Assembly (NCBI RefSeq): GCF_037042905.1
Contig: NC_087251.1
Span: 40,364,001-40,428,000 of the forward strand
Reading direction: 5' to 3'
Source of the DNA: Lytechinus pictus
Lineage: Eukaryota
Length of the DNA stretch: 64,000 bases
The translations under genes and the position numbers were made by a program. Below, piece by piece: positions 8,277 through 37,935 of the stretch (positions within the stretch are counted from its first letter, which is position 1; every line of letters begins with the position of its first letter). The notes beneath the pieces were generated by a model, which saw only the letters and a list, made by a program, of their open reading frames with translations, was not told the origin of the DNA and searched no databases.

Positions 8277-8307
<31 letters not shown>

Positions 8308-12479: not shown

Positions 12480-13720
12480 GAGCTAAACAGCTCGCATACT
12501 CTACCTATATTATGGTGCCTAAATTATGGTATCATATCAATTCACATACCATTATTTTACCGAATCACCGATGAATGACAAAGACCATGACTCGTATGAG
12601 TAGAGAATAATGCAGTATATATATACTACCAAGGCAAGGGTATACACCATAGACTTTGCGTAATACACACCAGTACAGTATACCCAGTCTGTATATATTA
12701 CGTGTGATTACAGAGCTAGCTTGAGCACAATCCAATCTGGCTCCCATATTCTAGACGTTCCGTGTCCTTAGGTCACCCCAGATCGTTGTCCTGAAATACA
12801 TTACGCAATCACTCTGGTATGCCCAATCATACACCTCCTTACAAACCATCGCCAGACGCGACTGTTTAGTACGATGTTGACGATTGGCTATACGTCAAGC
12901 TCAAGGCCCCCACAACGTAGTCCTTGTATACAGCCTAGTTCACGTTCAGGTCATCGAATAGGAAAAAGACTCGTTGTTCGCTCGACGGTGTCAAGGGCTA
13001 AACAGCTCGCATGCTCTCTACCAGACATTCTTCACTACAAAGTGTGTCAAACAGGGAGTACACACCGCTATCGTTTTATGTGATCATCAGGAAATTATAT
13101 TAGGAATTATCGGATTTTCTGCGGATTATTTTCTGCCATATACACATTTCAAAGGGATTCCCGCGACTTTGTTGCTTTGGCGGGCTGGGAGACTTCTTCA
13201 GTGCGAGGTAAGAATCATATATACACACAACGGATTTTGTGTATGTGTCTGTGCATGGACATGTATATACACAGGAATAATATTTTAACCCATATAGTTA
13301 CGTAAGGGTGTGTCGATTTTAGCCCTTTCTCATGCCGAAATCATAGCCACCCGAAAAAAACTTTCCGCGCTAACTTGTCTGCAAGAAACTTTGCTTCAGT
13401 CTTATTGGTTGTCAAATGATCAAGGAGCATTATTACGGGTTACGTAACATTGTGTAATATCTTGGTACCGTTATTTGCGATTCGCTGCAGCCATGTCTTG
13501 GTGCGGTGACGGACGCATCGCACATACGCGGCGACCATCCATATAGCTGCCTAATTTGCATACATAATGTGCTGCGAATTACTCACTCGCTATTCGTCCA
13601 TTTTGTTGAGAATAGCTCCCCGAGTCCCCGGGTGTCGTGGGTTTTCTTCTCTTTGTTGGAAAAATATTATCACAGTCGTTTTGGCGGGGAAGTTCTGACA
13701 GTGATCTCTCTAGCGTAGTA
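12480..13720 (+). promoter_or_regulatory. Probable promoter and non-coding first exon of the bZIP gene; splice donor at 13207/13208
   Basis: Repeat-free, CpG-rich island. Strong donor GAG|GTAAGA. PAR/C-EBP sites TTGCGTAA 12656, TTACGCAA 12801, TTACGTAA 13298 and 13440. The acceptor at 21740 needs an upstream exon. Confidence 0.5.
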
Positions 13721-14442
13721 CTATATTGACAATACAGAAATTTGTACATATAAAAAAAAATAGAATAGTATTATGATATTTAATAACAATACGAGACTGG
13801 AACTTTCTGGATTTCTGGTCTGGTTACTCGTATATTTTTATTTATAGGAGAATCCTCTAGATCGTCAAGCTAAACCCATATTATTGACCCAAAGTTTTTT
13901 TTTTTCTTCCAATTTTTTACCCCACTCTTTATAGGAGAGTTATACATAGATCTTGACCCATTCGTATATTTCAGGATATTATGCCCCGTTGATTTAACGA
14001 TTTAACGCAAGCAGACAAACAATTTATATTTTCTCTTATTTCGTTTTGGAATACGAAGATGGAAGATAGAAATGATTCAGGTTCGATATCGACAATCAAA
14101 CAACTAGCAAACCTATATACATTTATTTCACTTTGATTTCATGAAATTTTCCTGTCAGTATTAAAGTAGTACAACTTCGATGTATATATCTTTTACTTTT
14201 CATTTTATGCCTTTTGCACTTTTTGGTTGGGAGTTTACAAAATAAAGAGTTAAAAAAAAGTTTCCTTCATTGTTTTTTTTTTAATCTTTGAAATGTATAT
14301 ATAATTGTCACTGCCAAAATATTTTCATTATTTTACGTCATTCATTATCTTCATCTGCAGTGAAGGGCAATAAACTAAAGTTACTAAACATTTATGATGA
14401 GGGTTACAACGTGGAATGTGCTGCCTATGTTATACACCATTC

Positions 14443-14723
14443 ACTGTTGGAAAATTTATCCTTAAAATAAAAATAAGCTCCCGCAGCAGAGTCTCGAGAA
14501 CACCTGTAATCTTACCAGATTGCGTAATCTTACAGGAAATTGGTATTTGGTGTATGGAATCTTACAGATTTCCTTAAATAAAACACGCTTTTCCCCTTTT
14601 TAAACAGACCTGTTCTGTTAAATTGCAGGAAAATTCCTGTTTTATGAATTTACAGAATGATTCTGTTATTGCTTTCTGCAAAATCTTCTTTTTTTATCTG
14701 TAAAATTAGTTTTTTTAACAGTG
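14443..14723. mobile_element. Short CACTG...CAGTG MITE
   Basis: CACTGTTGGAAA ... TTTTTTAACAGTG|TA with internal TTACAG/CTGTAA repeats. Confidence 0.55.
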
Positions 14724-14819
14724 TAGGCAGCACCCAGTCCCTAGAATTAGAAATCAGGTTGGTTGGTAAGTGCAGAAATTTGACCCGAATCACTTTTTGG
14801 TGTTATTTTTTCAATAGCT

Positions 14820-16590
14820 GTACCCCAGACCTTTGTTATTCTTAGTATACATTAATGATATACATAATTCATCTCCCATTCTGTCTTTTATCTTATTGGC
14901 CGATGATACGAACAATAAAAATATCTCACAAGAATTTACCAGAATTGATAAACAATGAATTTAGAATTAAAAAAAAAAGTATCCTCATGGTTTAAATGCA
15001 GTAAGTTATCCTCACTTAACATGAAAACTAATATTAAGTCGGATGTCAAAAGGTGGTCCAATTTCGCGAACATAGTAAAAATGGTTTAAAAAAATCAATT
15101 TTGATATGTCATAAGACATAGGTATTACCATTCTGTAAATAATAATATAAAAAAATTAAGTCCCAAAATGGCTAATTTCACATCCGATTTTGATGGAATT
15201 TTCAGTGTTATGGTTGTTTGATTTTTCTCTTTTTATTCCACTCAAATTTTGTTGGGGGTGTCCTTTAAGTATAAATATTTTATCATTCACCACATCCACT
15301 GGCTCCTCTACCCTTGTAACTTCAAACTTAATGTGCTGTAGTTTTTAATCCTGATTATTATATTCTTATAATTTATATTTAGCCTATATAGTTCTAGCTT
15401 CAAACTGAGATCTTAGTCAAAATATTTGGTCTTGATGCTGTGATGTAGCAACAATTTAAGTTGTTCATCCTCCACCTTTTTGCATACCGAACTTTAAAAA
15501 ATGTGACCATTATGCATTTTCAAACTTCTCATAGAAATGACACTTTTACACAATACATTACAGTTGATAATGTGCCTTTAGATAAAAAGAAAAAAAAGGA
15601 ATACGTAAAATTCCTTATAAGTTATATGTAAAATTCCTTGGTATTACAAAAAACGGGCGTTTATCATGTACTTCACACATAAGTGTCTTCCTCTGTAGCT
15701 AAATGAATTTGAAATCTTTTACAAATTGAAATATTTCTTACTAGACTTGTATCACTAGTGTAACCTCATTTTGGTAATAGCTGCAAGACCTGCCTTGATC
15801 AGAAAAGAAAGCGGTTAGAAGTTGTTCCAAATCTGCATATATTTCTCATCATGCTCATACAGACAATCTTTTGTATCCTCTGGACAGAAATAGACATAAA
15901 TATGAATGACATTAATACCCTTCAAGTAGCACTTTTTATGCATAAATAAAATTATGACATACTTTGTCCAGTATTCACAGATTTTTTTTCATATAATAGC
16001 AATTAACCTTTACATCCAAGAACATGCAATAATTTTCACTTAAATAATTCTAGGACACTATTTGCACATAAAACACTATACTATCACGAACCTGATATTT
16101 GGAACGCTTTACCAGATTCACCCAAGCAGACAAGATCATTTGAAAGAATCGCAGTACCTAATGAATTTAATGTTTTTATTATTATTACTATCATTGTTAT
16201 TTTAGTGAGACACTGACTTTTGACTATAACATGTATATATTTGAAAAGAAAACAACAACGAAACTTATCTAAAATTTCATTTTAAGGACCAACCATGTCC
16301 ATAATTGCACCCCGGCTCCCAGTCCCTTCATGCACTTGCACGTTTAATGACAGTAGACATTAATTATTGCCTATTTTTTCTGATGACCCTTGCAACAATA
16401 TTATTCATTATGTAACAGAAAATACCACTTAAATTTGTTTTTTTTATATTGTGATACATTAAGTTGATTTACATACAAAATTATTTGCTCATTATCTTGA
16501 CGTCAAATTTTAGATATGTATTTTCTTGTGCAGATTTTTGTTTATGAAAAATGTTGCAAAACCCAATAAATAAAATGAAATGAAAAAAAA
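14820..16590 (+). pseudogene. Decayed 5'-truncated LINE (CR1/L2-group) ORF2 remnant
   Basis: Hand translation gives VPQ..PLLFLVYINDIHNSSPILSFILLADDTN (RT core), WFKCSKLSSLN, and C-terminal YYHEPDIWNALPD. Tail AATAAATAAAATGAAATGAAA. Interrupted by frameshifts and other insertions. Confidence 0.8.
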
Positions 16591-16773
16591 ATCGTTCCCA
16601 GGCCCTTGCCCCCCCCCCCCTTCACACTTCTCTCGTAAACAAACTGTACTGTGTTTGTGCATTGCTGCATGTATTGTACTGTCTGTAGAATTTCAGGTTG
16701 CCCATAATACAGTGAGGTCACCCGTTCGCTTAACTTTTGTCAACATGACCTGATACCCATCCAAAATGAGGGC

Positions 16774-17330
16774 TTAAAGGGATCGTCCAGGCTTAATAAA
16801 TAATAAATCTTAATAAATGGAGTAAAATCCACAGAGCAAAATGCTGAAAATTTTATCAATATCGGATAACAAATAACGAAGTTATAGAATTTCAAATTTA
16901 TCAATATTTTGTGAAGATATGCACATCGTCATGAATATTCATTAGGTGGGCTGATGATGTCACATCCCCACTTTCCTTTTTCTTATGTTATTACATGAAA
17001 TCATAGTTTTTTTTCTCATTTTTTTATACATCTGTAAATGATTTGTCTCCATTATGATGAAATAAGTTGCGGCAATGCACTTAATCCAATTGTTTTAGTT
17101 CTTGGTAGAAAAAAATTGAATAAACCTAATTTCATATAATAAAATACAAAAGAACAAGTGGAGACATCATCAGCCCATCTAATGAATATTCATGAAGGTA
17201 TGCAAATCTTTAGAATTCAATAACTTTGTTATTTGTTATCTTATTTTGATAAAATTTCCAGCATTTTGCTTTGTGAATTTTACTCTATTTATTGAGATAT
17301 AAATATCTCCAGCCTGGACCATCCCTTTAA
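16774..17330. mobile_element. Family A TTAA MITE (Kolobok/T2-like), full copy
   Basis: TTAA|AGGGATCGTCCAGGCT ... AGCCTGGACCATCCCT|TTAA with long inverted arms. Confidence 0.9.
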
Positions 17331-18290
17331 AAAGAGAGCTAAATAATACCTACGGCGAAACGAAAACAGCAATTTAAACATTTTTGTACCAGATTCATAG
17401 GTGGTTTGAATAAAAATGAATAAAACGGCAAATGAATTAATAAAAGGGCAAATGTGACTGAGGTATCAGATTCCTTATTGCGTCATTCTGGTAATATCAA
17501 TCTCGCACTCAAACACCAGAAAGATAAATTGTGACTACATGAGGTTAAAATAATAAATAAACCGAACTATCCTTAAAGGAGTATAGACCTACTCCAGGCT
17601 GAAAATCATAATTATCGAAGTTATTGAATATTAAACTTTGTTGCAATATTTTGTGAAACTGTTTTAGGTCCTATGTATTTTGTCATTCAGTATATGCTCA
17701 GAGGCTTATATTATGTTCCCACTTTCCATTTTCTTCTATTACATTAAAATAAACTAATGTTTTAATGTTCTTTTGTGAATCATAATTATATCCGTTTCAG
17801 AAATGATTCTTACATAATTGAAATAGTAGTGAATCCTATATGTTTTCATTCCCCTGCATGGTAGAGGGCAACATTAAATGATTATAATTTCATGCACAAA
17901 AAATAAGCGTTTAGGTTAGCTTTTGCATAATGAAGACATACGCGAGCTGGGAATATGATAATTTGAAGAAAAAAAAACCATGGAGTTAAAAGGTACACGG
18001 AAAAGGGTTATGATTACACTAAAATAAATTAGTTTACCGCAAAATATCCACCTTTGTACTACAGAAATGCAATATATCATTATTATCATCATCACCATCA
18101 TCATCATGCCTTAAATTTAGATAGATAAGGCAAGATTGAAAGTTCTTTATGTTCTGTTTAATGTGAATTAACTTTAAAAAGAGTTAAGGGCATGCATAGG
18201 CCCTTATTGGTTTGAAATGGAGCACAAACTATATGATCACTGGCGAATGAATGGAAGTTAGGACTTATGCATGTGATTTCAACTGAAGTT

Positions 18291-18848
18291 GGACACTTCC
18301 ACCCCAACAAAAAGTTGATTTGAATAAAAAGAAAAAAAATCAATAAGCCAAACACTAAAAATTTCATCAAAATCGGATATTAAATTAGAAAGTTTTGACA
18401 TTCACAAGTTTCGCTTAATTTCACAAAGCAGTTATTCACATCCTGATTGGTATGCAAATGAGGGGACCAATGATGTCACTAACTATTTCTTTTGTATTTT
18501 ATTATATGAAATATTCTAATATTCTGATAATTGTCTTGAGAAACCGTTTATTCCTCCCTGAACATGTGGTATTATGGTTCAGTCAATCTGATCCTTAATG
18601 TCAAATCTGTGTAAGTTGACATAATGTGTAATTCAAACAATTAAAAAAAAAGAAATAGTAAGTGAGGGACTTCGTCGACTCTTTCATTTGCATGTACTGA
18701 GTTGTGCATAACTGTTTTGTTAAAAGTAGCAAAGCTGAAAAATGTCATAACTTTCTTATTTCACATCCGATTTTAATGATTTTTCAGCGTTTTTTTAATG
18801 ATTTTTCTCTATTGACACATATCAACCTTTTTCTTAGGTGGACTTTAA
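18291..18848. mobile_element. Family B TTAA MITE, near-full degenerate copy
   Basis: GGACACTTCCACCCCAACAAAAAGTTG ... AGGTGGACTTTAA. Colinear with 28611-29138. Confidence 0.75.
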
Positions 18849-19412
18849 GTTTTCATTATGTCGAAACATTCCCCGTGAACAAATTGGTTTAAAGAAATAA
18901 TATTCACATATTATACCGCATTTAGCTTAGTATCAATTTGCTACAATGTTAGTTTTAGGATTATGGATTATTATGGCCACGTGGTGATATTGGTCTTTTT
19001 ATAATGCATCCGCGGGAATTCATTGCATGCATGACGCATTGGTTTATTCTTTTACACAAAGTTTTCAAATCAATGTTGTAAAATGAAAAAGACCAGTCAG
19101 TATGATTTGTATTCCAGCATCATGATAACAAATACTGTATAAAACTTTATTCATATTGTACATGATTGTATGCTGCTGTGTTGAAAACAATTTTTTTTTC
19201 GTTCCCCTCACTCTCCTCTTCCCCGCTCTCTCTCTTCCATTCTCTCCATTACTGAGCTCGCTGATTAAAAAAAGAAGAAGAAAGAAAGAAAAGGAAAACA
19301 AAAGAAGAAAAAAATGATCAAGAATTGTCTATTCACACAAGATAATCACATGTTAAACTTACTGTTTCCATTTTGGGCCTTACTGCAGGTAAATTGTGCA
19401 TTCAGACCACTT

Positions 19413-19945
19413 ATAAAGGGGTACTCAATGCTGAAAAAATATGATTAGAATAGATCAAGAGAAATCCGGCAAAGAAAATACTGAAAATTTGATCACAATC
19501 GGACAAGGAACAACAAAATCATGCCATTTTAAAGATTAGCATTATTTCGGTGAAACGGTTCTTCTTCCTGAATATCCAATGAGCAATTTGGAGTCATATG
19601 CCCTATTATGAAATTATACATATTACTTTTTTTTCCTCCAAGCATTAAATATATTAGATCGACAACTGATGTAATACATTAAATATTCATTTCTGCATCT
19701 TCTTTTACCATAAGGGAGACATAATCATAAACAATTGTATTAAAATATGAAATAATTACGATATCATGTAATGAATTAAGAAAAGGAAAGTGGGGACACA
19801 ACATTTTTTACATAATATTGCGAAATTTTAACATTCAATGACTATGTTATTTTTTATCTGGTTTTGAAGAAATTGTTACCATCTTGAGTGAATTTTACTC
19901 TAATTATTGAGATATAATTATTTTGAGCCCGGAGTATCCCTTTAA
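19413..19945. mobile_element. Family A-related TTAA MITE, older degenerate copy
   Basis: ATAA|AGGGGTACTC ... GGAGTATCCCT|TTAA with family A internal motifs. Confidence 0.7.
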
Positions 19946-19983
19946 CTCAAGTGAAGGGTTTGCACAGCAGACTGCCGATGGAA

Positions 19984-20433
19984 TAGACCAGTTCGTAGTT
20001 ACTCATGGACAATTTTCGGTCAAATGACCTTTCATTTCTTTCATTATGATAGGCAGATTTCAAAGCAAAATATTACGTAAGCTTGCCTTACATAGCAGGA
20101 TGAAGAAATTGAATAGACCAGGTGACTAGAATAGCACACCAATGAACACTTTATGAAGGTATTTGTTGCATTCCTACTTTGAATGCATACCATAGCATGT
20201 TGCACAATGTACTTGGCAAACTGTGAAAACCAGTCGTTCGTGGACGCGTTGTTGTTTTTTGTGGATGTAAATGAAAACCACAATTCAAAAGAATATATGA
20301 ATAATCAAGACATCAAAGTTGGTGCTTATCTCATTAGATTTTAAACCACCATGTCACTTTAGTACAAATGACCTTCCTCTGATCATGCGTAGAATCTTTT
20401 GATATTGCGCAGAAAGGAACTACGAACTGGCTT
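19984..20433. mobile_element. MITE with AGACCAGTTCGTAGTT termini
   Basis: TAGACCAGTTCGTAGTT ... AACTACGAACTGGCTTA. A matching end fragment lies at about 25893-25936. Confidence 0.7.
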
Positions 20434-20546
20434 ATTGTGAACATTGGTTCAACCACGAGCGAGGTCATCGAAATAAAAAAAGTTCAATGCGTTCACTAAA
20501 ATGTGTCAAACTTGTAGAGGGCGCTATTATAGCTCTGATAAATCTT

Positions 20547-20693
20547 GGTGCCGTGGCCGAGTGGCAAGTCCGGGGTTTGATCCCCGGCCGCGGCACCTAT
20601 GCCCGTGAGCAAGGCATTTAATCGACAATGCTCTATCCTGCATTCAAATAAATGAACATGCTTTATATGTGCATTCTTGGTAACTAGGTGTGC
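20547..20693 (+). mobile_element. tRNA-derived SINE, internally deleted copy (same family as 47507-48153)
   Basis: A-box GTGGCCGAGTGG, B-box GGTTTGATCCCC, shared body GCGGCACCTATG.CCGTGAGCA.GGCATTTAATCGACA. Confidence 0.75.
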
Positions 20694-20793
20694 AATTGTT
20701 TGTAAATAAAAAGATGAAGAACTTACGACACTGTAGCATGCCCATGCCAGTATCACTGTATTATTGCATATAGGTACCACGTACGTAAAACGT

Positions 20794-21623: not shown

Positions 21624-21740
21624 ACTGTTTCTCTTGAAACTGGCCGCTAAAAAGAATAGGATCCCAGCATGTTGCCAGAGTTGATGGATTCTTTGACTGA
21701 CCGAGTATTATTTTGTTGTTCCTCTCCTTCTCAAATACAG

Positions 21741-21857
21741 GGATATTAAACACAAGGACACCACTGGTTGAGAGGAAAGTTCAGCCTGTAGGGAGACAGG
21801 CAGAAACCATACGGTCATTTACATACCCTCGGCCACCACACGGGTCAACATACCAGC
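21741..21857 (+). other. Splice acceptor (21739-21740) and 5'UTR part of the coding exon of the bZIP gene
   Basis: TTTTGTTGTTCCTCTCCTTCTCAAATACAG|G. The in-frame TAA at 21747-49 shows that translation starts at or after ATG 21858. Confidence 0.7.
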
Positions 21858-23174
21858 ATGCCGTCAAGGAGGAAATGTGCTCATACGACCAAAATTGAAC
21901 GGGTTCCTAGCTATGCCGTCTACCATGGCGAGGAAGACCTGGATGATCGCCTTAGTAATGACGGTACACTCGACCTCAGCATCAAGAAAATCAAAAGGGA
22001 GCCTTCCGATGACAATATTGAGTTGTCTGGAGAAGGGATGTACCTCGGAGATGAGAACGATGTGGGGAATATTGATGCGGGAATTTCTGAAAAAGTAAGT
22101 GGAGGAAGTGGGGAAGAATTGTCAGAGGATATTGCGCCCCCTAGTGACCAGTGCGAGGCAAATGGGAAAACGGGAGCAGACGACGCAGATGCGAACAAGC
22201 CAGGAAGTCATTCAAGCAAACAAACCCCGGCCAGCGAAGGCAATGGTGAGGAGCAGATTGTCATAAACTGCAACGGACAGCCACTGAGCCCAGTCACAGG
22301 TCTACCACTCTTTCCTCAGTCTAAAGGAAAATCAACCCGACCATTTAAACTTTACACTTCAAATCGTGATCTTCTTTCTGGTATAACAACTCAAGGAGCC
22401 TCTTCTCTTGCAACGTACTCCGTACCCGTGGCTCTGACACCAGCTGTACCGGGAGCAGTCCCCATTACTTTCGCTTCCCTTCCCCTAGTATCAGGCGTAC
22501 CAATGATCCCAACTACTACGTCTCCTTCAACCACTACCTCCGCTTCATCGTCCAATGCTTCGACGGGCGCTGGTTCGATATCATCCTCCACCTCGTCTAC
22601 CTCCTCTACTACCACTACTGTGGGTGCAAAGACTACCTCGTCGACTACTGATGCTCACCTGATGACGCTAGCAACAGAAGCAGACAAGATCCTACGGGAG
22701 AGGCATGCCTCGGAGGAATCATCCATCGGTGCTACCTCGGACATGGAGGCGACTACCGGCGATACTTACAGCAGCAGCGGAGGGGAAGAAACCGCTTTAC
22801 TTGCAGGGGAAGTTCTCAAAATTCCCTCATTGGCTGGTAAGTCAGGTAACATGAACTCACTAACTTTCATCCAGAAGCGAGCCGTTGAAGCCGCCCAGTC
22901 TGTCACGAACCCACCGAAAAACAAGAAAAAGCGATTAGCTCTCCCAGAGACGTTGAAAGACATTGCATACTGGGAGAGAAGGAGGAAGAACAACGAAGCT
23001 GCAAAACGATCCCGGGATGCTCGCCGGGCCAAGGAGGATCAAATCGCCATCAGGGCTGCCCTACTGGAACAAGAAAATATGCGCCTCAAAATCGAAGTGT
23101 CAGCACTCAAAGAAGAAACGGTTAAACTACGATCTATGCTCTACGCAAACAACAACAGTCATGATGACAGTTGA
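21858..23174 (+). CDS. giant: PAR-bZIP transcription factor of the giant/CES-2 group, 438 aa, single coding exon
   Basis: C-terminal b[48 protein letters not shown]-terminal TLDLS (CtBP PxDLS-like) and TRPFKLY, resembling motifs of insect Giant. Exact orthology within giant/ces-2 needs a phylogeny. Confidence 0.85.
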
Positions 23175-25195
23175 ACAAATGTTATGATTTTGTTACGCTT
23201 ATTCGCTGCATATTTACTGTTTTCCCCTTTTGTAAATGAACTTTGCCGACCTCCAGCTCTCAGATTAGTATGAAATCCAAATTTCACAATGAACGCTCCA
23301 AGTTCTTTATCGGGACATTTCATGATATTAATGCTGCATCCTTTTATCTTTATAAAATCAACCAGCTCTAAGTCTAAACAGTTATTGCTACATCTACACA
23401 TTCTTGGAATTCGACGCATTTTTTCAAAGGGATGCGTGTTTTATCGCCATAGGTACTCCCAAGTCCCCAACCAAAGTGCAAACTTTTGAATGTGAGTTGC
23501 GCCATACATTTTGATAGCAACGATGAAAACGAAGCCACGCTGTGTTTTTTGTATTTTGTAAAATGTAAATATTACAAATCATTGCCTTAACTTGCTATCT
23601 TGTATCGTAGTACGTCGACGAGGACTAGTCAGACTCTTGTAGATTACTAGATAGAGTGTACGTACTGAGCTGAGTGAGCTACATTATGTTATATTGCTGC
23701 AAACATTGCTAACATGCAACGTTTTTATCATGTGTATGAATTTGTTGAATTAGTCATTATACGACTGAGCTCCTTTTTGTTTTTCATGTGGTATAGTGAC
23801 GTCATTGTGTATATTGTGAATAAGGCCATTTCTCATCTTGATTCCATGATGTTCTCCAAGAACCTCTTCATATCTGTACTTGTTAATCTGTAAATATTTT
23901 ATTTTAGTATACGCATTTTTTCTTAAAGTTCATGTAACCATACACATAACTCAATTAATGTTCATTTCTCTTGGCTTCCATGTCCGCCTTACTAGTACCA
24001 CAGTCATATTATTTATTTCAGTCATTCATGCATTTCACTCTTATTTATTGGGAATAAGCATTCCATAAATGCTTTCCAGATGAATTATGTTGCATCGATG
24101 AAATGACTGTCTCAGAGATAATAATTATATTTCAAGGATGAAAAAGTAACTCCCATGATTTAACCATCTATGTACTTTGAAATGTCAGTTTTTAAAACAA
24201 TTAACTGCAAAAAGAGTTTTTATCTTGGAAATATTCAGTTGTTAACAAAACCGTATTATAGTTACAATTAATGGTTCCGGTAAATTAAGATAAATAGAAT
24301 GTATTCCTTTATTCGAATTATGAGAGAGAGAGAGCAGTGTTTCTATGATACATGAATCTATTTTTAAAAAACTGTTCAGCATTTACTGCTCTGAAGTATC
24401 GTATTTTACAACATTTTTTCTCAATTTTTACAATTATGATAGGTAAAATGAAAAAAATACTTAGATATGGTGTTTTATACAGTTCGTGGAAACAAATAAT
24501 GAATACATGATATTTAGATGAAGGTTAAGTACTTCTGTGAACTGAACTAATCATAATTCTTTTTAAAATCCTACGATATTTGTTGCTGATGTACTAGTTC
24601 CTAAACGGGTTTTATTAATTATCTTGCACAAGGTTTACGGATATTGCCATTTAAATTTTCTGCTAATATTATCCACGATAAAGTAGGAATGATGGAATTC
24701 TCTATGGATACTTATCTTTCATTGTTGGGAGGTAAGTCGTAAAATAACTAAATACATGTTGCTTTACTAGCGTAACTTATCATTTATTTTATGGAAAATA
24801 GCTTTCTGAGTTCGCTTATGTTCGCTCATTTGCTTCGTTCATTGTAAATCCTTTATTTTCATAAATTATGGCGCCAAACAACATTTTGTAGATTAAAATG
24901 AATTCTTGTTGAAATTTGACTTAACGCACGTTACTATCCAAATTGTATATCGCATTCCAACAGTTATGGATGATGTTTTGGTGATTGTGGCGATTGTTTT
25001 GTTGATATGTTGTATTTGAACCAACATGTCGAGAGTTGACATTTCTCCATGGTGATATGATCATTTACTTTGTGGATTTTTCGTCATTGTGTGTTGTACC
25101 TTATGAAATAACATGACATCATGACAAATGAACTGTATCGTTGGAGGAAAATTCTAGAGAAACAATGGATTCCAGAGATGATGGCGATTACTCTC

Positions 25196-25445
25196 TTACA
25201 TAAGACTGCGTCCCTCATCCACAAACCGCTGGTCGCGCATTGCGCAATATTATGTAAGTTGTAACGTTGCCTTGAATGGTATGTGCCCTCTCTCACATCG
25301 GCTGTGGCCAAAGAAGTAAAGAAACTATTACGTAACAAGGTTAGGGTACTTGGGGCGTCTTTTACCCGTGACACGGGATAATGTGGGTGCTTGATTGGGT
25401 GGGTGGGTGAGGTGAGAGGCCAACAGTCCAAGGTCAGCATATAAA
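25196..25445 (+). promoter_or_regulatory. bZIP site cluster with CCAAT and TATA elements
   Basis: TTACATAA 25196, ATTGCGCAAT 25239, TTATGTAA 25250, ATTACGTAAC 25327, ATTGG 25394, CCAAGGTCA 25428, TATAAA 25440. Confidence 0.5.
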
Positions 25446-25893: not shown

Positions 25894-26461
25894 ATTTGAC
25901 CAAAATTGTCCATGAAAGTAACTACGAACTGGTCTAGCTATTTTCGACAGAGACTTCTAGGTTGCTATAGTGGTCCATGCTCATTTAGTTCCTTTCTTTT
26001 CAAGTCAGTATAAAAAAAAGATTTTGCGGCCTATCGGGGAAAATGTGGATGAAAATATTACCCCCCCCCCCATTGGCGAAAGCTGGATATGCCCCTGTTA
26101 GACATCATAAAGCAGTTATTTATCGAAAATAAGAGGAGGTATAGGGCTAAATAGTAGTACATTGGGGTGGGAATGATGCAGGAGAATGGCAGGCTTATTT
26201 ACGATCAAAATTCAATGAAACCAGATGTAATGTCAAACAAAGCCTCGGTGTTTACGTTATATTACGTAATGTCACTTCTTTATCAAATAAACTCCGTTGC
26301 AATGCCATCAGCTGCATCCTCAATGAAGTGATAGTTATATTCAAACAATAATTGAAGTGGCCTGATTCTTCATTCGACATTATTTTCTATTCTCTATTCA
26401 TGAAACAAGGGGCTAATTGATAAAATACTGAACGAAAATGATGTGGGATAATAATTACAAT

Positions 26462-27338
26462 AGGGCCGTCTGCACCATCCCGAGTTTTCAAATTAGCGCG
26501 CTATTTCTGATCCGGCAAATTATCCCGATCTGAAAAATCTCGAGATAGTTGGCGGTGCAGACGCAATTATCGCGCTAGTTCGTAGGATTAATCTCGAGAT
26601 TGCAATCCCAAGTCAACTCGGGTTTATTTGCAAAATAGCGCGCTATTTTACGAATTATCCCGCTAATTCGTCGGTGCAGACGCACTCGAGATTGGACTCG
26701 GGGTAATTTATTCATGACGTCAGTCCATAATGCAATTCGCGTTCCACTTCCGCCTTGGTCAAAACATAAACACGTGCGAAAGTCAACTTTATACATGCGA
26801 ATAGCGTTCATAAGCAACGATGGTGTCCCACCAGTGAATGGATTTTGGGAGAGACCAGACCGAAGGGGGAGGCGCTCATCGACGATGGTCATATTCAATA
26901 ACAACACTGACAGCAGTGTTGTCTTATTCCTTCGCAAAATGTGAGCAAATAGCATTTCTTTCCTCCTTCTCTCCCTCTCTCTCTCTCTGTCGTTGCCTCC
27001 TACTCCGCCATCATAATTAACGAAGAATACATCACTTCTTCACTCGCTGAGCTGAGAGGATTGTTGCATAACACCGGTTGAATTCGGCGAAAGTGCTAGT
27101 GAAAGGAGTACATTGCTTGCATATCGCGGGAAGTTATTCAAAAGCGCGGGCCGTTGAAACTCCAAGATCCGAAAGTGCGCATGCTCGTAATATCGGGCTT
27201 GTTGCCTCGCTCGAGCAGGAATCGCTCTTCGTGGGATGGTGCAGACGGGGTTTCTTGAATCTCGAGATTAATCGCGAAGAGGGCTGATCGGGCTAAAATC
27301 TCGAGATTGAGCAAACTCGGGATGGTGCAGCACCGCCT
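26462..27338 (-). mobile_element. PIF/Harbinger deletion derivative with transposase N-terminal remnant
   Basis: TIR core CTGCACCATCCCGAGTTT at both ends and AAT on both flanks. Subterminal repeats GGTGCAGACG and AATCTCGAGATT. Minus-strand remnant reads SVWSLPKSIHWWDTIV..IRMY/KLTF. Confidence 0.78.
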
Positions 27339-29138: not shown

Positions 29139-31695
29139 ATAACATAATATGCATTTTTTCACGATTACTGCAAGTTCTTAAAATGTCCCCATGTTAGGTC
29201 TGAATATAAAAAAAAACTTCAGCTCGCACTTTGCTCCTTTGTTTAATGATGAGTTAGGTATGCTCTCATGAATTAATTAAAAACAGTCCTTAAAATGTAA
29301 ATTTTTAGGTCTGAATGTCGAATTATTTAACTAGCGAGATACCATGCTCGTCACGAATTTTTACAGACAGTGCTTTAAATGTGCACCCTTTTCAGTTCTG
29401 AACAGAGATGAAATATCATTATTAGCAGTCAAAAAGTTCTTCATAAATAATGTTATTTTAATCTGTTTTCATATCATAAATCTAGCTCGTGTATAATTTG
29501 CACGGTAGAGAATGATATAATCTCCGCCATTGCATAGTTTTAAATTGCACAAAATTCATATATATTTTATATAACTCATGAAATCATACTTTTTGCTCTA
29601 AATTCACTAAATAGAACTCCTATAAATTTAATTTTGGGTGTAAATGTTCCTTGTGGCATTCCTAACAACTACATATGAAAAGAAATCCGCTACCAAAATC
29701 AATGTCCTATGTATTTTATTGGTTTTTCTTTTGTTTTTCGTATGTATTTCTTTCATTTCTTATTGTCATTGTTTTTCGACAAAATTCATCGGGGACATTA
29801 TTTCAGTAATAAAATAGCATCAAATCAAATGACTATTGTCAATAAAAGTAAGAATAAGCACTCATTTATGAATTTTATATGAAACAAACTTTGAATTGAC
29901 TTTCTACATGAGATATACTAGTATACGTTTTTGAGCAATTTCGGGATGACATGCACTTACATAAGGTTGCGTAATTTCGTAACCGTGTGCCAGGGCATCG
30001 CAAATTTGGTCTCAAAATTTGTGCGAGACTTGAAGGTAAAAAGTCAGTAAACGATGCGGTCAAAAAATTCGCGCAGCGGATGATTCGCGAAAAATGTCGA
30101 GAGGGGGGGGGGGGCTGATAAGCCCCCTCTATTTGGGAGTCAATATACAAAAACAAAATCAGCTCGCGCTTTGCGCTCGTATTGCTTATTTAATGAAACA
30201 CGTGGCATGATTGCAAAAAAAATATAGTACTTAGTTAGAATGTATATTATTTTCAGATCTCATAAATATTTTTTTTATTAGCTTGCGCTTCGTGCTCTCA
30301 TTATTTGATTAGTGAGATATGTATGATCTTCCTGAAGTCCTGGAAATTGTCCTTAAAATGAATCTGTTTAGGTCAATGGCTATTGAGCGTGCTTCTCGCA
30401 CTCACCAATGAAGTCCCCTCATGCCATGACACATGGTACGCCACTAATAGGGCATGAATCGCACCAAAAGTCACAAAGAAAAAATACTGACACATGACGG
30501 ACCTTCTCATCGTCTGTAAAGGGTGTTGTTTTCTTACACAAAGAACAAGCATTTGAATATACAGATATTTATAGGTAGATCAGAAGGGAACTGAATGGTA
30601 TTTGATATTCATCAAGTTAAAACTTTAGCAAGTAACACATTATAACACTGTTCTTACGTAATCAGACAATTATGTACAAGAGTATATATTACGTAATAAT
30701 CGATAGAGTATTTTTCGTAAATTTAATTCCGTCATTGTTCTTCATCCAGTAAATAAATCTTTCTTGGGTGATGAAACTTGATAGTATTTGGCTAAATTGC
30801 CTCCCTATCATTTAGGCCTAAACTTGTGCATCTCATAAAAGTTTGCTAGGAGTAGTAATTTTATCGAAGACATGATTCTGGTGGCGATGGTCTGGCTGTT
30901 TCAGCCATAACACTCTCACTTATACTGATTTAATCTTGTATGATAACATATTAAAATAACATTATTTATGAAGAACTTTTTTGACTGCTAATAATGATAT
31001 TTCATCTCTGTTCACATAAAAACCGAAATCATACCGAATTCATACCGGTTTGAATTCTGTATCAGGAGCACTTCTTCCTTCAAGGTGTGGGCTATGGCAT
31101 CAGGGCCATCCCATTTATGATTATGATAATCAAAAAAATTATTCTAAAAATCGCAATTTGTGTTTATATGCAAAGGGAGAGGTGACTTGTAATCGAATCT
31201 GTCGGAATCTTCACATGAAAAGTTCCAGTTCGGCATATAGATCCATATGTGGAAAACTAAGGCATACATCTCCCTTTGGATGAATGAATGAATTAAATTA
31301 TTGGGAGAGGGATAGGAAAAGATGAAGAGTTGCCTAATATTACGCAACAGTATTGATCAATGAACTATACATATGGGACGTGTTTCGAATCCTTGCTCAT
31401 CGGCCGGACTTTTTTTCTTTTTTTTTACAGACGTTGTCTTTTTTATGCTCATCTCACCGGTTAAGACTGTCTGCAAGATTACGTAATCCTCTTGATCCAC
31501 GTGATATCTTTGTTTGTATATCTTCGATGTTTCAGAAATAAGAGAGAGGACAGGGATGGTGATAGATAAACAATTAGATACGGAAAGATAGTACGACTGA
31601 TATAAAGATATAGAAACTAAAAGACAGTGAAGGCAGATTGATCGATGAAGCTTGAAGCTAGGATAGACTGATGTACAACAGGAACTTGTTATGTA

Positions 31696-31952
31696 TTTTT
31701 TTTTTCTGTTTTATGGTAACTCCCGTAGGAACTCGGCAGGACAGCATTTTGCTGGTAAACGCCAAGCTGGTATATAACCAATTACCTATAGGAAATATTT
31801 TACGTCTAGGTTAATCAGTCACAGTGGCTGACCTCACACGACAGATATTACTCTCTGGCCTTTTTATCAAAGTGGAGACAATGGCAAAGTTGGGATTCGA
31901 ACTCACAACCTTGTGATTATGAGTCCAATGCTCTAACCACTGGACCACACGG
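31696..31952 (-). mobile_element. tRNA-derived SINE with A-tail
   Basis: Minus strand: CCGTGTGGTCCAGTGGTTAGAGC (A-box) ... GAGTTCGAATCCCA (B-box), a body of about 180 nt, then an A10 tail. The anticodon stem does not pair. Confidence 0.78.
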
Positions 31953-34832
31953 TAGGAAATGAAACGACAAAATTATGACAGAAAAATAAAGAAAACGTCT
32001 TCTCATAAGGAGACGTTTCTGTTATCTTCATGTCATATAAAAATTGAACATTGTTGCTTACATTATAAACAGAACAACCCTAAATAAACAAGGTTGTATA
32101 ATACACAGTTTGTTATTGTTTTTACTCTATATAATAATTTATTTCTATTTGGTGATTTTTTACCCGAGTGCTAAGAAAGCATGAATGCTTGTAAGCAAGC
32201 AACCTGAGGCAGGCGCGTAGCCAAGTGGGGGGCGGTGGAGGCGGTCGCCCCCCCCCCCAAAACATCCCCAAAAAGAAAAAAAAAGGGGGAAAGGGAGAAA
32301 AAGAAAGAGCGAAGGGAGAAAAGGGAAGAAGGGTATAGCTTTATTGTTGTTTCTTTCGTTTTTGTCAAACATGTCAAAAGAATAAAAACCTAAACGAGAT
32401 GTCTTTCTCTCTCTTCATACAAAATTTTGCTTCCGCGCTCCACGCGGGAAAAAATATCAGAATTGCCTTTCCCCTTTGTTTCCCACACCTTTTTTCCGGG
32501 CTTTTTTTCTACTCCGTTTTTCCCCTTCCCGGCCATGGGAATCCCACTCTTGCCAGATATTACAAAGTATACATGGGTAGTATGAAAAACATTTTTTTTA
32601 ATTGCACTGACACAAAATTTCGGCTCTTCTGTTCAGAGGGGGTGAACTTTTATACCGTCTCTCCCCGAGTCCCCTAATGCTACATGTATTTCTTCCATTT
32701 TTCAGCAAGCAATTTTTTGGCAAAGTATCTGCTAAAAGGAGGAAGCATTAAATTCGTGCCGTGCCATATGCAAAAGCAGGTACGATGAAACTTTATTATA
32801 TATCGCTGCACGTCAATCTCCGGTCCTGTTTCGGTTTTGCGCCATTGATTTGACATTTAGAATATCACTTAAGTTTCTTAATATTCTATTGATATTATGA
32901 GAAAAATTACACAATTTTTTTTCTTCCAAAATAAGTCACAGAAGTTTCCGTGCTTCGCTTGCAAAGGAAAGGATAAATCCCGCTTCTAGCTAGCATCATC
33001 CCTTTCACATTCTGATCTATATTTTTCTTCGTATTATCTAAGAAATATCCAAATTAGACCAGGTTAAAGTTTCAGAGAAATTTCTAAAATTCAGAGCTTG
33101 AACGCCATTCGCAGGAAGAAATATTTCCTCCCTGCTTATACCCGCTTTCTACTCTGTTTTGCGAGTTAAAGAAATTTAATGTGGCTAAAGTTTTTACAAC
33201 ACAATCTGATGTGACTAAGGTAGGTATTTTATACCACTTCTGTTCTCTTTTTTTTTATAAAACGTCTTAGCTTACGCGCTTCGCGCGGTAAGAGGAATTA
33301 TTTTGAATTCCTCAATCTTTCCCATTTTGTGGGCGCCCATCTTTTCTTTTGAAAACGGGTTTTGTTTTTAATCATAGCAAGTCAATTGAATTCGTGTTGA
33401 TAAGTGTATTAGGGGTATATATAGGGTATATATATTAAACAGAATAAAAAAAAGTAGATGATATGAATCAAAGGCCTGGTCTAAGAGATTAGTACCATTT
33501 ATTACATAACATATTTTATTTCTTTCTACATGGTGGATAGTTTTAACCCTGGAGCTAATATAGATGTTTTAACCAACACACCAGTGCAACCATCTCGTTT
33601 GAAGAAGATATCTTTTCCCCGTTGCCGATTGCACAGTCCGAGAACAGTATGTAGGCCTAATGATTAGATGACCGTATGTTCCCTGAACGGGAGCATTACA
33701 TTACGTAACATTACATGACCGTTGTAAGGACATTCAGGGATAAGAATATAAATTAGAGCAAGGTTTAGTTTCAAAAAGAAATTATAAAAAACACGAAAAG
33801 CAGGGCATGAGGCATGAGGTCCTTCTTCAGGAGGCCTAGTTACATAAATATATACCACCCTATTCATACGGCCACACCAGTGATCTCCCTATACCGACGA
33901 AACCCCAGCGAAACCCATTGATTTTGTGTCATTATACTTGGTAATAACGTGATAACTTTTGTTTTGACCTGTTCCGCTGATGAGGATAAAGTTCAGTCTC
34001 TTCTCACTGATCGCCACACCGTTAGTCCAGTACAGTATAGGCGGTCCATGGTCCAGAGAAGGAAGTCTGATATATTGGGGGGGGGGGGGTGGTAGGGGTG
34101 TTAATTCGGTATCCGTTTGCTCCCTTTCTGGGAAATGTCCTGAAAGTGATGTAGGGGCCTATTTTGGAACTAATCTGAACCATAATTTATATATTAACAA
34201 ATAAGATTATAAGCATATTTCACCGTCTCGAACCCTCATAAAATCATATTGGAATAAATAAGATTCATTGGACTTTTCCTCTACTCTTTCATACGGCCTT
34301 ATTAGAGCGAATGTTATCGCAGACAGTCAGCCTAGTTTGTTGCTATTGACCCAGTGATTTATTTATTCCCTATCGAGCGAGGAGAACGATGCAGAATGTT
34401 TTAAAACCGAACACCACATGGTCATATTGTTACGTAATCCAACGCCGACGATCGAGCTGAGGGTTTTTTTTTATAACCGGACAAAATGTGGTTTGTATCC
34501 CAAGATTTTCCGAAAGGACAGGATCCGTCTGAGAGTTTGTCAAATTTTGTAACTACACCTTTCATTGGTATTTAGTATCTTGGTGGTTTTTCAGAAATGA
34601 TTTAAGTGCTGGTTTAGGCTATAAAAGATACTGGAAATCACTGCGTCATCAATATGCAACAGTTTGTTTATGATATGTTTATTTCTTCAGAATTCTTTTG
34701 ACAATAATTTGAAGTAGAATCAAAGCCACTTGTAGGCCTGTTTTGTTTGGCGTCACCCCGCGGCGTCACCTGAGCCTGGGAGGCGAAAAGCGACCCGCAG
34801 GTGGGCTACACCGGGCTTCTTGCAGTGGGTTC

Positions 34833-35189
34833 TTAAAGGGGTAATCCGGGCTGAAGATATTTATAGATATTTATATGTAAATAAAAATAGTAAAAATCAC
34901 AGAGCAAAATTTCATCAAAATCGGATAACAAATAACAAAGTTATTGAATTTTAAACATTTGCATTATTTCTTTGAAACAGTTCTAGGCATGCATGACTTC
35001 ATGAATATTCATTAGGTGGGCTGATGATGTCACATCCCCACTTTCCTTTTTCTTATGTTATAACATGAAATCATAATTGTTTCATGTTTTCATAAATGTG
35101 TAAATGATGTGTTTCCATTATGATTAAATATGTTGCAGCAAGAAATAACTAATGCACTTAGTCAGTTGTCAATATGCCTAGAACTGTTT
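34833..35189. mobile_element. Family A TTAA MITE, right-truncated
   Basis: TTAA|AGGGGTAATCCGGGCTGAAG, colinear with other family A left arms. Confidence 0.8.
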
Positions 35190-36705
35190 GCGTTTATGAC
35201 TTTTCCTGGGTGTATGTAAACTTCTGGCCTCAACTGTATATATATATATAATTATATCAACGTTGTATTCCGCACGAAATGCCGAAGGAATGAAGATGTC
35301 TTTTAGAGAAGGAAGATGTCGCGCTTCTTGAAATAAAACACACACAACTTTAATACCATGTGCAATGTTCACTTTATATTGTTTTGTTTTTTATCTGTTG
35401 ACCACAGGAGGCCTGATTGGAATACCGAAAAACCATACATAAGTAAACCAATAAAGAAACATTATATTTTTGAATAGGCCTTGATTTTTCTCTTATTGAA
35501 CTGTGAATGCAGATTTTCAATAGATTATAGTTCAGCCAGGGGTGTGTATTTGAAGATGAATAAAGCAGGGAAAATAACCCAATATTGGTTAATTCATGTT
35601 GGCTGCGGGGCATGTTTCTCATCTGAACCTAATAATTGTCAAATTATTTTGCCTTTTCTTGTGCTCTGTTTTATTCTACAGTCCCACTTTCCTTTTCTAA
35701 AGGAGAATTTCCTTTCTTTTATTTTCACAAGAATTACAATCAGCATTACTGCACGGCCGTTTATGTTTCCATATTACGTAACCTCGCAATTATGCGGTTA
35801 CACGATACTGGTAGAAGGTTGCGTACGTTGTTTCCATCCTACCAAGCATCCTTGTTCACGATCAATCCGCGAAGATTGGAGAAGACGAACTCTGATGGAG
35901 AAGATGTAAAGCCAAATAAACAAATCCAGGGATGAAAACCATACAGTTCGTTCTAGGAAGAAAATTGGACGGATACGGGATGGGTTTCATGGGCGGAGGG
36001 GGGGGGGGGGTGTGTTAAAAATGAATGAAATAAAGAATGTGATACGGGAAGTATTGTCTGGAAACAAATAAGTAAGCAAATAAATTGGTCCAAACATGAT
36101 TCCACGCAAAACGAGTGGATATTTTTCATAAACAAAAGTTGGTATGTTTATGAGTATATTAGACAGCCAAATATAGTTAAAGAGTGTCCGATTTAAAGGA
36201 AATTGACTTGAATATAAATATACCATGCTCAGAAACAATGAAATTATGCCTTCTCCAATGTATGGCTATATATCAGTAAGGTCATTTGGCGTTTAGGTGG
36301 AGGGGATACTTTGCCTATGTATGTTGCACCATACTAAAATGATTCATTTTCCCTTTTCATTTATTTAATTTAATTTCATTTATTCATATCCATTTTTCAT
36401 TAACATCACCAAAATTATCATAAGTACGTCATATTGTTAACAAAATGTACATAAGTTTCATACAAAACAAATGTTTAATATCAAAATGATCTTGTGAATG
36501 AAATGTTGACTGAATGGTATATAAAAAAGAAATATTTGGAAAATTAAATCTTTGATTTTATGATCGAAAAAATAATAACCAAGATGATGAGAAGTAAGCC
36601 AGTTTATTTTTAGCCTAGATGTGTCAAGACAAACGATCATTGTAATGTCATGGGCCGATGCAGGGGCGGATCCATCTCCCGCCAATAGGGGGGCCGGGCC
36701 CCTCC

Positions 36706-37065
36706 CCCCCTGGATCCGCCTATGGGCCGATGACACGGATAAGAATTGAGCAAGGGAAAAATGAGAAAGAAAAAAAATGAGTCAGACGAATAAATGAATA
36801 AACGATGAGACAGAGAATAGGACAAACAGAGACATAGGCAAGAGTGATAGGTTTCGGGGAGGGGTGAGGGTGTCTTTACGAACGCCCCACGCCCCCTGGA
36901 TCCGCCTATGGGCCGAGGAAACGGATAAAAATTGAGCAAGGGAAAAATGAGACAGAAAAAATGGGTCAGACGAATAAATGATTAAACGATGAGACAGAGA
37001 AAAGACAAACAGAGACATAGGCAAGAGTGATAGGTTTCGGGGAGGGGTGAGGGTGTCTTTACGAA
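36706..37065. repeat. Tandem duplication, two copies of about 185 bp
   Basis: CTGGATCCGCCTATGGGCCGA...GTCTTTACGAA repeated (TGGATCC at 36711 and 36897). Confidence 0.9.
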
Positions 37066-37935
37066 GTTTTCTTTTTTTTCCATTGTTGGTTTTCATTATT
37101 TTTGTTTATGTCAAGTATCTTAATTGGATTTGTAATCATTTTTTGTCATGTGTAACAGCATCTTTTTATTATGTATGCCCTGAACCCCGATGAAGAACAG
37201 CGTTGTTGTATTAACAAAGCTGAATGGGCTTATCCAGCCATTATGTACATACATTAATACCTTGTATTGTTTTTAATGTTGTGACATAGAAAAGTAAATA
37301 CCAATGCCAATACCAAAGACAAAGACAAATATATAGTAGGCTAGACAAGGATGTGAGAGAGACAAAGAAACAATCAATATTTTTTAGCATCATTGTTAAA
37401 AAAATGGGGGAATATCTGACAAAATTAAATGAAAGGGAATCGGAAATCGAAAGGAGTGGATTACGTAACATCGGTAGGTCGATGGCCGAGCGACGAAGGA
37501 CATGTTGAAAGTTGGTAACATGAAAAACAACTTCTGCTCATGTACTCACTATCAAAACTTACACACTTCCTTTATGCCATGAAATATAATTGATGTATGA
37601 AACAGATTTTGAAATTGTAGGTCTAGAACAATGTCATTCGCTTCACATGGTATTTATATACAACTTATCAACTTATCCAACTTAGATTTGTCAAGATTTC
37701 AAGATTTTTTTTTTATTTCATTCTCATTTCCATTTTTCATTACTATATAATGAATATAATATTTCTATGCATTTCCTACGCTTTGTATTATCGTCTCAAA
37801 ATTTATTTATACAAATACATTGTAAAGGCACCGGGAGCAATGAATTTCGATGACGATTCAGTTAATACCATCTGGTACGACCCTTTTCAGCAGCTATCAA
37901 CTGCAACTAGATTGCGGGCACAATTAACGCCCATA

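Follow-up and report, generated by a model that had tools for sequence, protein, structure and literature searches.

In a 64-kb stretch of the genome of the sea urchin Lytechinus pictus (hereafter the window), a gene encoding a Giant-clade bZIP protein is accompanied by 11 separately placed perfect sites of the PAR/Giant class where 0.35 would be expected, an extreme and clean signal that points to feedback by the gene's own product or by close relatives. An earlier note on this DNA had listed 12 copies of the octamer TTACGTAA, nine of them extended to the full RTTACGTAAY, and none in the rest of the 64 kb; we found all 12 again at the same positions, the recount likewise gave nine full sites, and positions 1-13297 and 37469-64000 contain no octamer.

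Measured against the 811.7-Mb genome, which holds 11,629 octamers and 4,677 of the 10-mers, the cluster has 12 octamers where 0.35 are expected per 24.2 kb and nine 10-mers where 0.14 are expected; the genome-wide expectation thus lies ~35-fold (octamer) and ~65-fold (10-mer) below the cluster's count, and the rough estimate that had been made from base composition, about one octamer per 24 kb, was conservative. The Poisson probabilities of 5e-15 (octamers) and 5e-14 (10-mers) become ~1e-8 and ~1e-7 once multiplied by the count of windows and by an approximate factor of 50 for sliding, and such tails are over-optimistic wherever the word is carried by repeats. In dinucleotide-shuffled versions of the window, the 10-mers averaged 0.26 with a maximum of two, and nine or more were reached in 0 of 100 shuffles; among the 13,759 distinct 8-mers of the region, TTACGTAA takes rank 1. 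The densest 25 kb among the matches listed held three 10-mers (first 50 matches, 7.2 Mb of C1), three octamers (first 51 matches, 2.9 Mb) and three KRTTACGTAAYM (first 50 matches, 26 Mb), the last against seven in the present window, a comparison of 25-kb densities that draws on samples of listed matches and on whole-genome counts rather than on a genome-wide ranking. Within the 26-Mb sample, the strongest cluster comprised five octamers (four full) within 12 kb, and three of the five lie inside a degenerate ~220-bp repeat.

Repeats do seed this word in the genome, as in an array on C1 and in the window itself, where the octamer at 20073, already placed within an element by the earlier note, proved to be carried by a young, high-copy MITE-like element of ~455 bp with 22-nt terminal inverted repeats (19982-20436). 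The best 39 of 1,868 candidate matches to this element are other copies, 98-99% identical, and four of the five other copies that we fetched contain the octamer; as transposon cargo, the 20073 site was rejected as a member of the cluster and is not counted further. The remaining 11 of the 12 sites fall outside any detectable repeat, a DNA search of the genome (which skips very common words) returned no second copy covering any of them, and outside the core their flanks are unrelated, with a top local score of 28 as against 16-20 from the core by itself; these sites are of separate origin. That the cluster nevertheless arose neutrally, by chance together with old repeat remnants no longer recognisable or a local mutational bias, is highly improbable in our judgement, as the 11 flanks share nothing past the core and the word, which has a CpG, is the known site of the very class encoded by the embedded gene. 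Two other palindromic 8-mers reach extreme scan P values against a Markov model, TACATGTA with 19 and CTTGCAAG with 9 copies in 25 kb, but the former abounds throughout the genome, at 6.9 per 25 kb, which leaves an excess of 2.8-fold, and the latter belongs to the consensus unit of a 79-bp tandem array at 40249-41461.

The cluster also stands out in the quality of its sites. Purine/pyrimidine flanks occur on both sides of nine of the 11 non-transposon sites as against 40% genome-wide (P 0.006), and KRTTACGTAAYM is fitted by seven of nine as against 33% (P 0.007), a pattern picked after the flanks had been seen. Among the 12 one-mismatch variants, an excess was found only for the two that the PAR/Giant class tolerates: with repeats masked, these number seven against 2.9 (P 0.027) in the span of the earlier note and nine against 2.9 (P 0.003) in an extended span, whose left border was set to 12500 after two hybrid sites had been seen, whereas the other ten, likewise masked, amount to four against 6.3. 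An unmasked excess of 13 against 3.4 (P 6e-5) was dropped, as four variants inside repeats and the shift of the left border had inflated it. D-box 10-mers of the form RTTAYRTAAY number 11 against 1.8 expected; no clear enrichment in the region was found for the E-box (4 against 2.7, P 0.28), CRE (4 against 1.5) or AP-1 (1 against 1.6).

The embedded gene, previously described as of PAR-bZIP type, is an uninterrupted coding sequence at 21858-23174 of the plus strand for a protein of 438 amino acids, which Pfam identifies as a bZIP and which database name and tree place, more tentatively, in the Giant clade. The protein matches bZIP_2 (PF07716, residues 368-420, 55 bits) and bZIP_1 (PF00170, residues 374-426, 30.6 bits), both above cut-off, and over residues 1-200 it has a 99% database match named 'protein giant-like [Lytechinus pictus]'. 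In a tree of 36 rows and 74 columns, built from 34 of 200 hits picked by name and with fly Gt and worm CES-2 left out, the gene falls into a 22-row clade (100/98, bootstrap unsettled) that takes in most rows named giant-like and excludes both the CES-2-like rows and the C7 paralogue; a long-branch HLF row lies inside this clade and one giant-named row outside it. Because the fly protein is absent from the tree, orthology with fly gt rests on automatic names. By inspection, the protein lacks the proline/acidic stretch that precedes the basic region of the HLF-like paralogue on C20, a stretch that we take to be the PAR domain. It carries TLDLS (21966-21980, plus strand), which we regard as a CtBP-type (PxDLS-like) motif and which is invariant in all seven aligned echinoid-type orthologues; of 129 hits classed as Giant-like by a zipper pattern devised for this analysis, 98 have a PLDFS-type motif (P[LIVM]D[LFYM][ST]), at a similar N-terminal place, and no CtBP-type motif was seen in three starfish orthologues. 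The CtBP-like motif pointed out earlier is thus a clade-wide feature, with the qualification that in this protein it lacks the proline of PxDLS. That it might be restricted to urchins (9 of 120 hits) was rejected, the pattern used having missed PLDFS.

The gene is predicted to begin well upstream of its coding exon. A promoter and a non-coding first exon ending in a GAG/GTAAGA donor are predicted, from sequence only, at 12500-13208 of the plus strand, an apparently single-copy stretch with a CpG o/e of about 1.0-1.2 around the donor, and the coding exon would open with a 5' UTR part (21741-21857, plus strand) that follows a pyrimidine-rich acceptor and contains no upstream ATG. Within the predicted promoter, beyond the span noted earlier, lie the two hybrid sites, TTGCGTAA at 12656 and TTACGCAA at 12801 (together 12656-12808). 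Two of the 11 non-transposon sites adjoin the predicted first exon, namely TTACGTAA at 13298-13305, 90 bp past the predicted donor and with a purine flank on one side only, and the full site GTTACGTAAC at 13439-13448, with TTGTGTAA directly after it. Between 13440 and 25328 there is no perfect site apart from the transposon-borne one, and the other nine follow the stop codon at distances of 2-14 kb, the median of the 11 falling at 30689; the cluster therefore reaches 14 kb downstream, as had been claimed, but it is not centred on the gene.

The downstream series starts with an apparently single-copy module at 25196-25336, in which TTACATAA (25196), TTGCGCAA (25240) and TTATGTAA (25250) precede the full site ATTACGTAAC (25327), and continues with the full site ATTACGTAAT at 26261-26270 and a pair at 30654-30697, where TTACGTAAT (30654) and the full site ATTACGTAAT (30688) are spaced by 35 bp. 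A module at 31340-31503 comprises TTACGCAA (31340), the full site ATTACGTAAT (31478) and an E-box, CACGTG (31498), which is 19 bp away from where the octamer at 31479 begins. In another, at 33502-33847, the full site ATTACGTAAC (33700) stands between two copies of TTACATAA (33502 and 33840). Single full sites follow at 34429-34438 (GTTACGTAAT), 35773-35782 (ATTACGTAAC) and 37460-37469 (ATTACGTAAC), the last with a short dispersed repeat ending ~125-145 bp upstream.

As nine of the 11 sites lie past the stop codon, between the bZIP gene and a FAM181-type gene at 54.6 kb, they might serve the latter or an unannotated downstream RNA. We consider this extremely improbable: every downstream site falls within the 14 kb beside the bZIP gene, the 17 kb from the end of the cluster to the FAM181-type gene contain none (mRpS12 lies 12 kb past the end of the cluster), the predicted first exon is flanked by two sites and both hybrids, and an Rfam search of the window gave no match. 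That the sites are functional and serve the bZIP gene is, in our estimation, highly likely.

The best reading of the locus, to which we give an even chance, is a set of dispersed enhancers, each with a PAR/Giant-class site, that convey a family-level and probably negative feedback. The region from 12.6 to 37.5 kb would then be the regulatory domain of the gene, made up of a module at the promoter and first intron and some seven more downstream; every module would contain an optimal PAR/Giant-class site or two, in many cases alongside weaker ones. The protein would bind these sites as a homodimer or together with a relative, and TLDLS would recruit CtBP, so that the protein damps its own transcription, while an activating relative, for example the product of the HLF-like gene, may compete for the same sites; the expected outcome would be a self-limiting pulse or a buffered level. 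Provided that the sites are functional and serve the gene, its own product is likely to be a main binder, and if it does bind functional sites, the net effect is quite probably negative. An arrangement of one site per module over 12 kb, without a tight array, would follow because a short-range repressor must occupy every enhancer that it silences. Fly Giant is described as a repressor of this short-range type, linked to CtBP in titles cited in the reference list of PMC3016493, and PMC2527657 describes conserved autoregulatory sites enriched near transcription factor genes of vertebrates. A search of metagenome contigs for orthologous DNA of a relative found none.

The sign of the feedback is the point at which the fly gene gives pause. 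The locus resembles Drosophila giant in encoding a Giant-type bZIP (by database names and tree), and a fly Gt footprint at Kr includes TTACGTAA according to a passage of PMC4303948; it differs in being a deuterostome gene with no known segmentation role and in its 11 perfect palindromes, mostly 3', spread over 24 kb. The proline missing from TLDLS speaks against a negative sign, as does the fly evidence, which in the relevant passages of PMC3016493 and PMC4303948 leans to auto-activation and presents gap-gene auto-repression as weak and circumstantial. Alternatively, the protein could act within a cell type to sharpen its own expression or lock it in. In fly mutants that make a non-functional protein, the gt domains gain in intensity late, and Gt is expected from models to bind its own elements (passages of PMC3016493); fitted models show gt autoactivation (a section of PMC4303948). 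Such positive autoregulation nevertheless appears distinctly improbable here, given that a co-repressor-type motif has been retained across the clade and that the protein is devoid of the proline/acidic stretch of its HLF-like paralogue.

Whether the gene's own product is the factor that matters depends on its relatives. At least two other genes in the genome, one CES-2-like and one HLF-like, encode near-identical basic regions that differ from that of the Giant-clade protein at one position, and these paralogues should, judging by that identity, bind the same word; auto- and cross-regulation are for this reason inseparable by sequence. The CES-2-like paralogue, moreover, carries a canonical PLDLT. 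It is accordingly conceivable, if somewhat unlikely, that another PAR-class factor has the gene among its major targets, self-binding being incidental, the likeliest cases being HLF-like activation (light/oxidative stress, through D-boxes) or CES-2-like repression. The surplus of D-box 10-mers fits this alternative, as do excerpts from the literature, in which the D-box RTTAYGTAAY is common to the activators TEF/HLF/DBP and the repressor NFIL3 and drives zebrafish light/ROS responses (PMC12561580), Sp-Hlf is reported as diel-oscillating and not free-running (PMC10486798, citing a thesis) and Nematostella PAR-bZIP genes are light-responsive (PMC10188108). Cross-regulation alone, however, offers no reason for so extreme a cluster at a gene of this very class, and E-boxes, the partners of D-boxes in fish promoters, are not enriched. 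The vertebrate D-box system (TEF/HLF/DBP, NFIL3/E4BP4), as covered in part by PMC12561580, shares with the locus the site class and a set of activator and repressor relatives that use the same site; it has about three, often imperfect, D-boxes less than 1 kb from the start together with E-boxes, whereas in the sea urchin perfect sites are scattered over the locus with no surplus of E-boxes, and the gene does not belong to the PAR-domain activators.

Self-clustering as a rule of the family was rejected, as the paralogue loci show no comparable cluster: one octamer and no full site in 100 kb at the CES-2-like locus, two octamers and no full site in 40 kb at the C3 gene, and four octamers, three of them full, in 100 kb at the HLF-like locus (P 0.06 and 0.02, for one of three loci examined). 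Homotypic clusters in which a factor's sites are over-represented around the gene that encodes it were reportedly described by Gotea and colleagues in 2010. Predicted autoregulatory loops with such an excess are also the subject of PMC2527657, which scored ±3 kb around the start, required conservation and found clustering near the start; here, most sites are 12-24 kb from a start that is itself only predicted.

Transcription factors often regulate themselves and one another; the proposed circuit is therefore of a known kind, here in an unusually dense form. The gene appears to be unstudied in echinoderms, and in the open literature searched we found no paper on this cluster. The sites offer exactly defined targets for mutation in a laboratory sea urchin, with which to ask whether factors of the Giant clade regulate themselves in animals other than insects and with which sign, and also whether short-range repression requires every enhancer to have its own site. 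A bolder and quite unlikely version of the feedback reading makes it the hub of an echinoderm PAR-bZIP circuit, in which a light- or stress-driven HLF-like activator would compete with the Giant-clade repressor for a single optimal site per enhancer, in about eight separate enhancers, with pulses or a daily rhythm as the result, by a D-box loop such as vertebrates run with NFIL3. If this is true, the Giant clade would have a function in physiological timing besides its part in insect segmentation, and the locus would be a natural model of enhancer-by-enhancer short-range self-repression.

The name giant has a further use in sea urchins. Sp-Giant (SPU_014528), a red spherule cell marker of Strongylocentrotus purpuratus, belongs to the same broad bZIP group and bears the same name; the words 'giant' and 'hlf' are absent from the main text of PMC8683087 and PMC10396339. 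The published forward primer for Sp-Giant has no match in the 64-kb window, and we rejected its published expression data as those of the present gene. Both primers align instead to the CES-2-like paralogue, located at C7:23.49 Mb, with three mismatches each, and Sp-Giant is thus very probably that paralogue.

All 12 PAR-bZIP octamers (TTACGTAA) that the earlier note had placed at 13298..37468, nine of them full RTTACGTAAY 10-mers, were re-found, and the remainder of the 64-kb window holds none, as claimed. The 811.7-Mb Lytechinus pictus genome, in which the window is C7:40364001-40428000, contains 11,629 octamers and 4,677 10-mers by whole-genome count, giving an expectation per 24.2 kb of 0.35 and 0.14, respectively, versus the 12 and nine observed (Poisson P 5e-15 and 5e-14); without the transposon site at 20073, 11 octamers still stand against 0.35 (P 2e-13). 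The listed samples (50 10-mers across 7.2 Mb, 51 octamers across 2.9 Mb and 50 KRTTACGTAAYM across 26 Mb) showed a near-Poisson spread with at most three sites per 25 kb, and the maximum of three in the 26-Mb sample compares with seven KRTTACGTAAYM in the window. Since three of the five octamers at the densest spot of that sample (12 kb) sit inside a degenerate repeat of ~220 bp, repeat-made clusters do exist, and a genome-wide ranking of windows therefore needs repeat masking. The units of this repeat (L033:6200-8650; C1:23421200-23423650) retain PAR/CEBP-class sites as TTACGTAA, TTGCGTAA and TTATGTAA, and the whole could act as a homotypic enhancer of repeat origin.

As a look-elsewhere control, all 256 palindromic 8-mers were scanned in the window and four fetched loci. 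Against the Markov model the octamer was outscored by TACATGTA, which is simply common (224,046 genome copies, or 6.9 per 25 kb versus 1.3 from the local Markov model); 19 copies fall in a single 25-kb stretch close to the HLF-like gene (L011-L020) and only four in the 64-kb window. Third in the scan was CTTGCAAG, which belongs to the unit of a tandem array at 40.2-41.5 kb. This array (40249-41461) has ~16 copies of a 79-bp unit and is G+C-rich and CpG-poor (o/e 0.19 in that 2-kb bin). Passages of PMC2527657 describe an excess of a transcription factor's own sites near its gene as a conserved network motif, and we conclude that the present cluster is a real, unusually dense case of it; a search of the open literature found no paper on this cluster.

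The octamer at 20073 is recent transposon cargo: it lies inside a 455-bp MITE-like element (19982-20436) with 22-nt terminal inverted repeats and 1,868 candidate copies, the best 39 others being 98-99% identical, and TTACGTAA is present in four of five fetched copies. Of the genome's 11,629 octamers, this young family could account for more than a tenth, and it could therefore seed near-consensus PAR-class sites genome-wide. An unrecognised repeat, which the earlier note had named as a possible source, was not seen for the other 11 sites: genome DNA searches over all 11 found no second copy covering any of them, masking by local BLAST leaves every one in place, and their flanks are mutually unrelated. 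This evidence is good, not complete, because the genome search skips very common words; a neutral origin of the cluster seems very unlikely. Matches, to a local 75-bp duplication and a dispersed repeat, fall beside sites rather than over them. The duplication is inverted (29399-29473/30939-31014, 96% identity), and the genome search found no further copies. The interval 26466-27330, with perfect inverted repeats of 16-18 nt at both ends and several AATCTCGAGAT palindromes inside, is probably another non-autonomous DNA transposon.

Among 13,759 8-mers in 12.5-37.6 kb, TTACGTAA is the most over-represented, and its flanks are class-like, with a purine adjoining the core in 20 of 22 half-sites, T or G at the next position outward in 18 of 22, and full 10-mers at 9/11 sites versus 40% genome-wide (P 0.006). 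Just two of the 12 one-mismatch variants, TTATGTAA and TTACGCAA, exceed expectation (together 13 versus 3.4, unmasked); masked, they number seven versus 2.9 in 13298..37468 (P 0.027) and nine versus 2.9 in a wider span whose left border was chosen after two hybrid sites had been noticed (P 0.003), while the remaining ten number four versus 6.3-6.6. These tolerated variants provide modest independent support for the cluster. E-box, CRE, AP-1, RORE, ARE and TEAD words showed no clear enrichment in the region; a heat-shock-like word did (3 versus 0.33), all three matches falling in dispersed-repeat intervals. Genome-wide, 40% of TTACGTAA carry purine/pyrimidine flanks on both sides (order-4 Markov expectation ~22%) and RTTACGCAAY occurs 9,848 times against 3,110 for its reversed control, a threefold difference; either full-length bZIP sites are over-represented throughout the genome or a repeat supplies them. 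PMC11240583 lists Nfil3-/Hlf-type motifs as enriched in the open chromatin of deuterostome gastrulae.

Three coding frames are recognisable in the window: a mitochondrial-type S12 (745-1212), the bZIP gene (21858-23174) and an intronless frame (~54596-56158) with the Pfam TEADIR3 TEAD-interacting omega-loop motif, which we take to be a FAM181-like protein. The bZIP coding sequence is one frame, and a strong donor at 13208/13209 within a CpG-rich stretch, together with an acceptor at 21740/21741 followed by 117 bases lacking an ATG, predicts that a non-coding first exon lies near 13 kb, separated from the coding exon by an intron of 8.5 kb. On this model two hybrid sites would lie within the promoter and two perfect sites 90 and 230 bp inside the intron. 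The cluster is not centred on the gene, as had been proposed, but lopsided, with nine sites 3' of the stop versus two in the predicted intron; the nine lie 2.2-14.3 kb beyond the stop, spaced 0.7-4.4 kb apart except for one 35-bp pair. Weaker sites occur within 250 bp of several perfect ones. Since poly(A)-like hexamers first appear at 24892 and 25574, the module at 25.2-25.3 kb could coincide with the end of the 3' UTR. The 17 kb preceding the next gene contain no sites; the cluster hugs the bZIP gene, not its downstream neighbour, and that the sites serve another target is most improbable.

Residues 1-200 of the window protein are 99% identical to 'protein giant-like [Lytechinus pictus]', and its other named close matches are sea urchin proteins. 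A 36-row tree built without fly Gt and worm CES-2 grouped it with most giant-like-named rows (100/98), CES-2-like rows apart, with a long-branch HLF row inside the clade, one giant-named row outside and bootstrap unsettled. The CtBP-like motif of the earlier note withstood comparison: TLDLS is invariant in seven of seven close orthologues and a related PLDFS-type motif occurs in 98/129 Giant-like matches, which makes a co-repressor-type motif ancestral, although none was seen in three starfish rows. Fly Giant is a short-range repressor, and short-range repression would explain one site per module. On the reading we favour, at about even confidence, each dispersed enhancer module of the gene would hold an optimal, presumably conserved PAR/Giant-class site, which the gene's own Giant-clade protein would occupy, recruiting CtBP and holding down transcription of its gene while competing with activating relatives. 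Reference titles in PMC3016493 tie short-range repression to fly Giant. The opposite sign, positive feedback, has been argued for fly gt and is here quite unlikely.

The basic region has seven genomic matches at six loci, of which we examined C7:23.49 Mb (matches often named CES-2-like), C20:13.37 Mb (presumably HLF, from its proline/acidic stretch) and C3:33.77 Mb. Within a 19-residue stretch of the basic region, a single position varies among the window, C7 and C20 proteins, so each of them should recognise the sites of the cluster. A possible, more tentative alternative to own-protein feedback is accordingly that the HLF-like or CES-2-like gene cross-regulates the window gene, perhaps as a light/oxidative D-box response of the kind touched on in PMC12561580, PMC10486798 and PMC10188108. 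No comparable cluster was found at the three loci, which carry one octamer in 100 kb (C7), four in 100 kb, of which the three full sites all lie 3' of the gene (C20; P 0.02 uncorrected), and two in 40 kb (C3). These three full sites on C20 (13354988, 13358282 and 13368016; L013-L014) lie on the 3' side of the HLF-like gene at distances of 5-18 kb, faintly echoing the layout of the window. An HLF/Giant timing loop at the locus is unlikely; if true, it would make the locus considerably more interesting.

The bZIP gene has little or no published echinoderm biology. Sp-Giant is reported as a red spherule cell marker, with primers, in PMC5695280. These primers match the C7 paralogue, which encodes PLDLT (L031:611-1351; C7:23489608-23490351, minus strand, 17 Mb from the window on its contig), and the forward primer has no match in the window, so the Sp-Giant pattern very probably belongs to the CES-2-like paralogue, and published sea urchin work has probably given the name Giant to the wrong paralogue. 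Elsewhere, two bZIP-like matches 1.5 kb apart share one 696-codon open frame (C11:8357478-8359226, minus strand), and two rotifer proteins (P0009, P0010) also scored as though each contained a pair of these bZIP domains.
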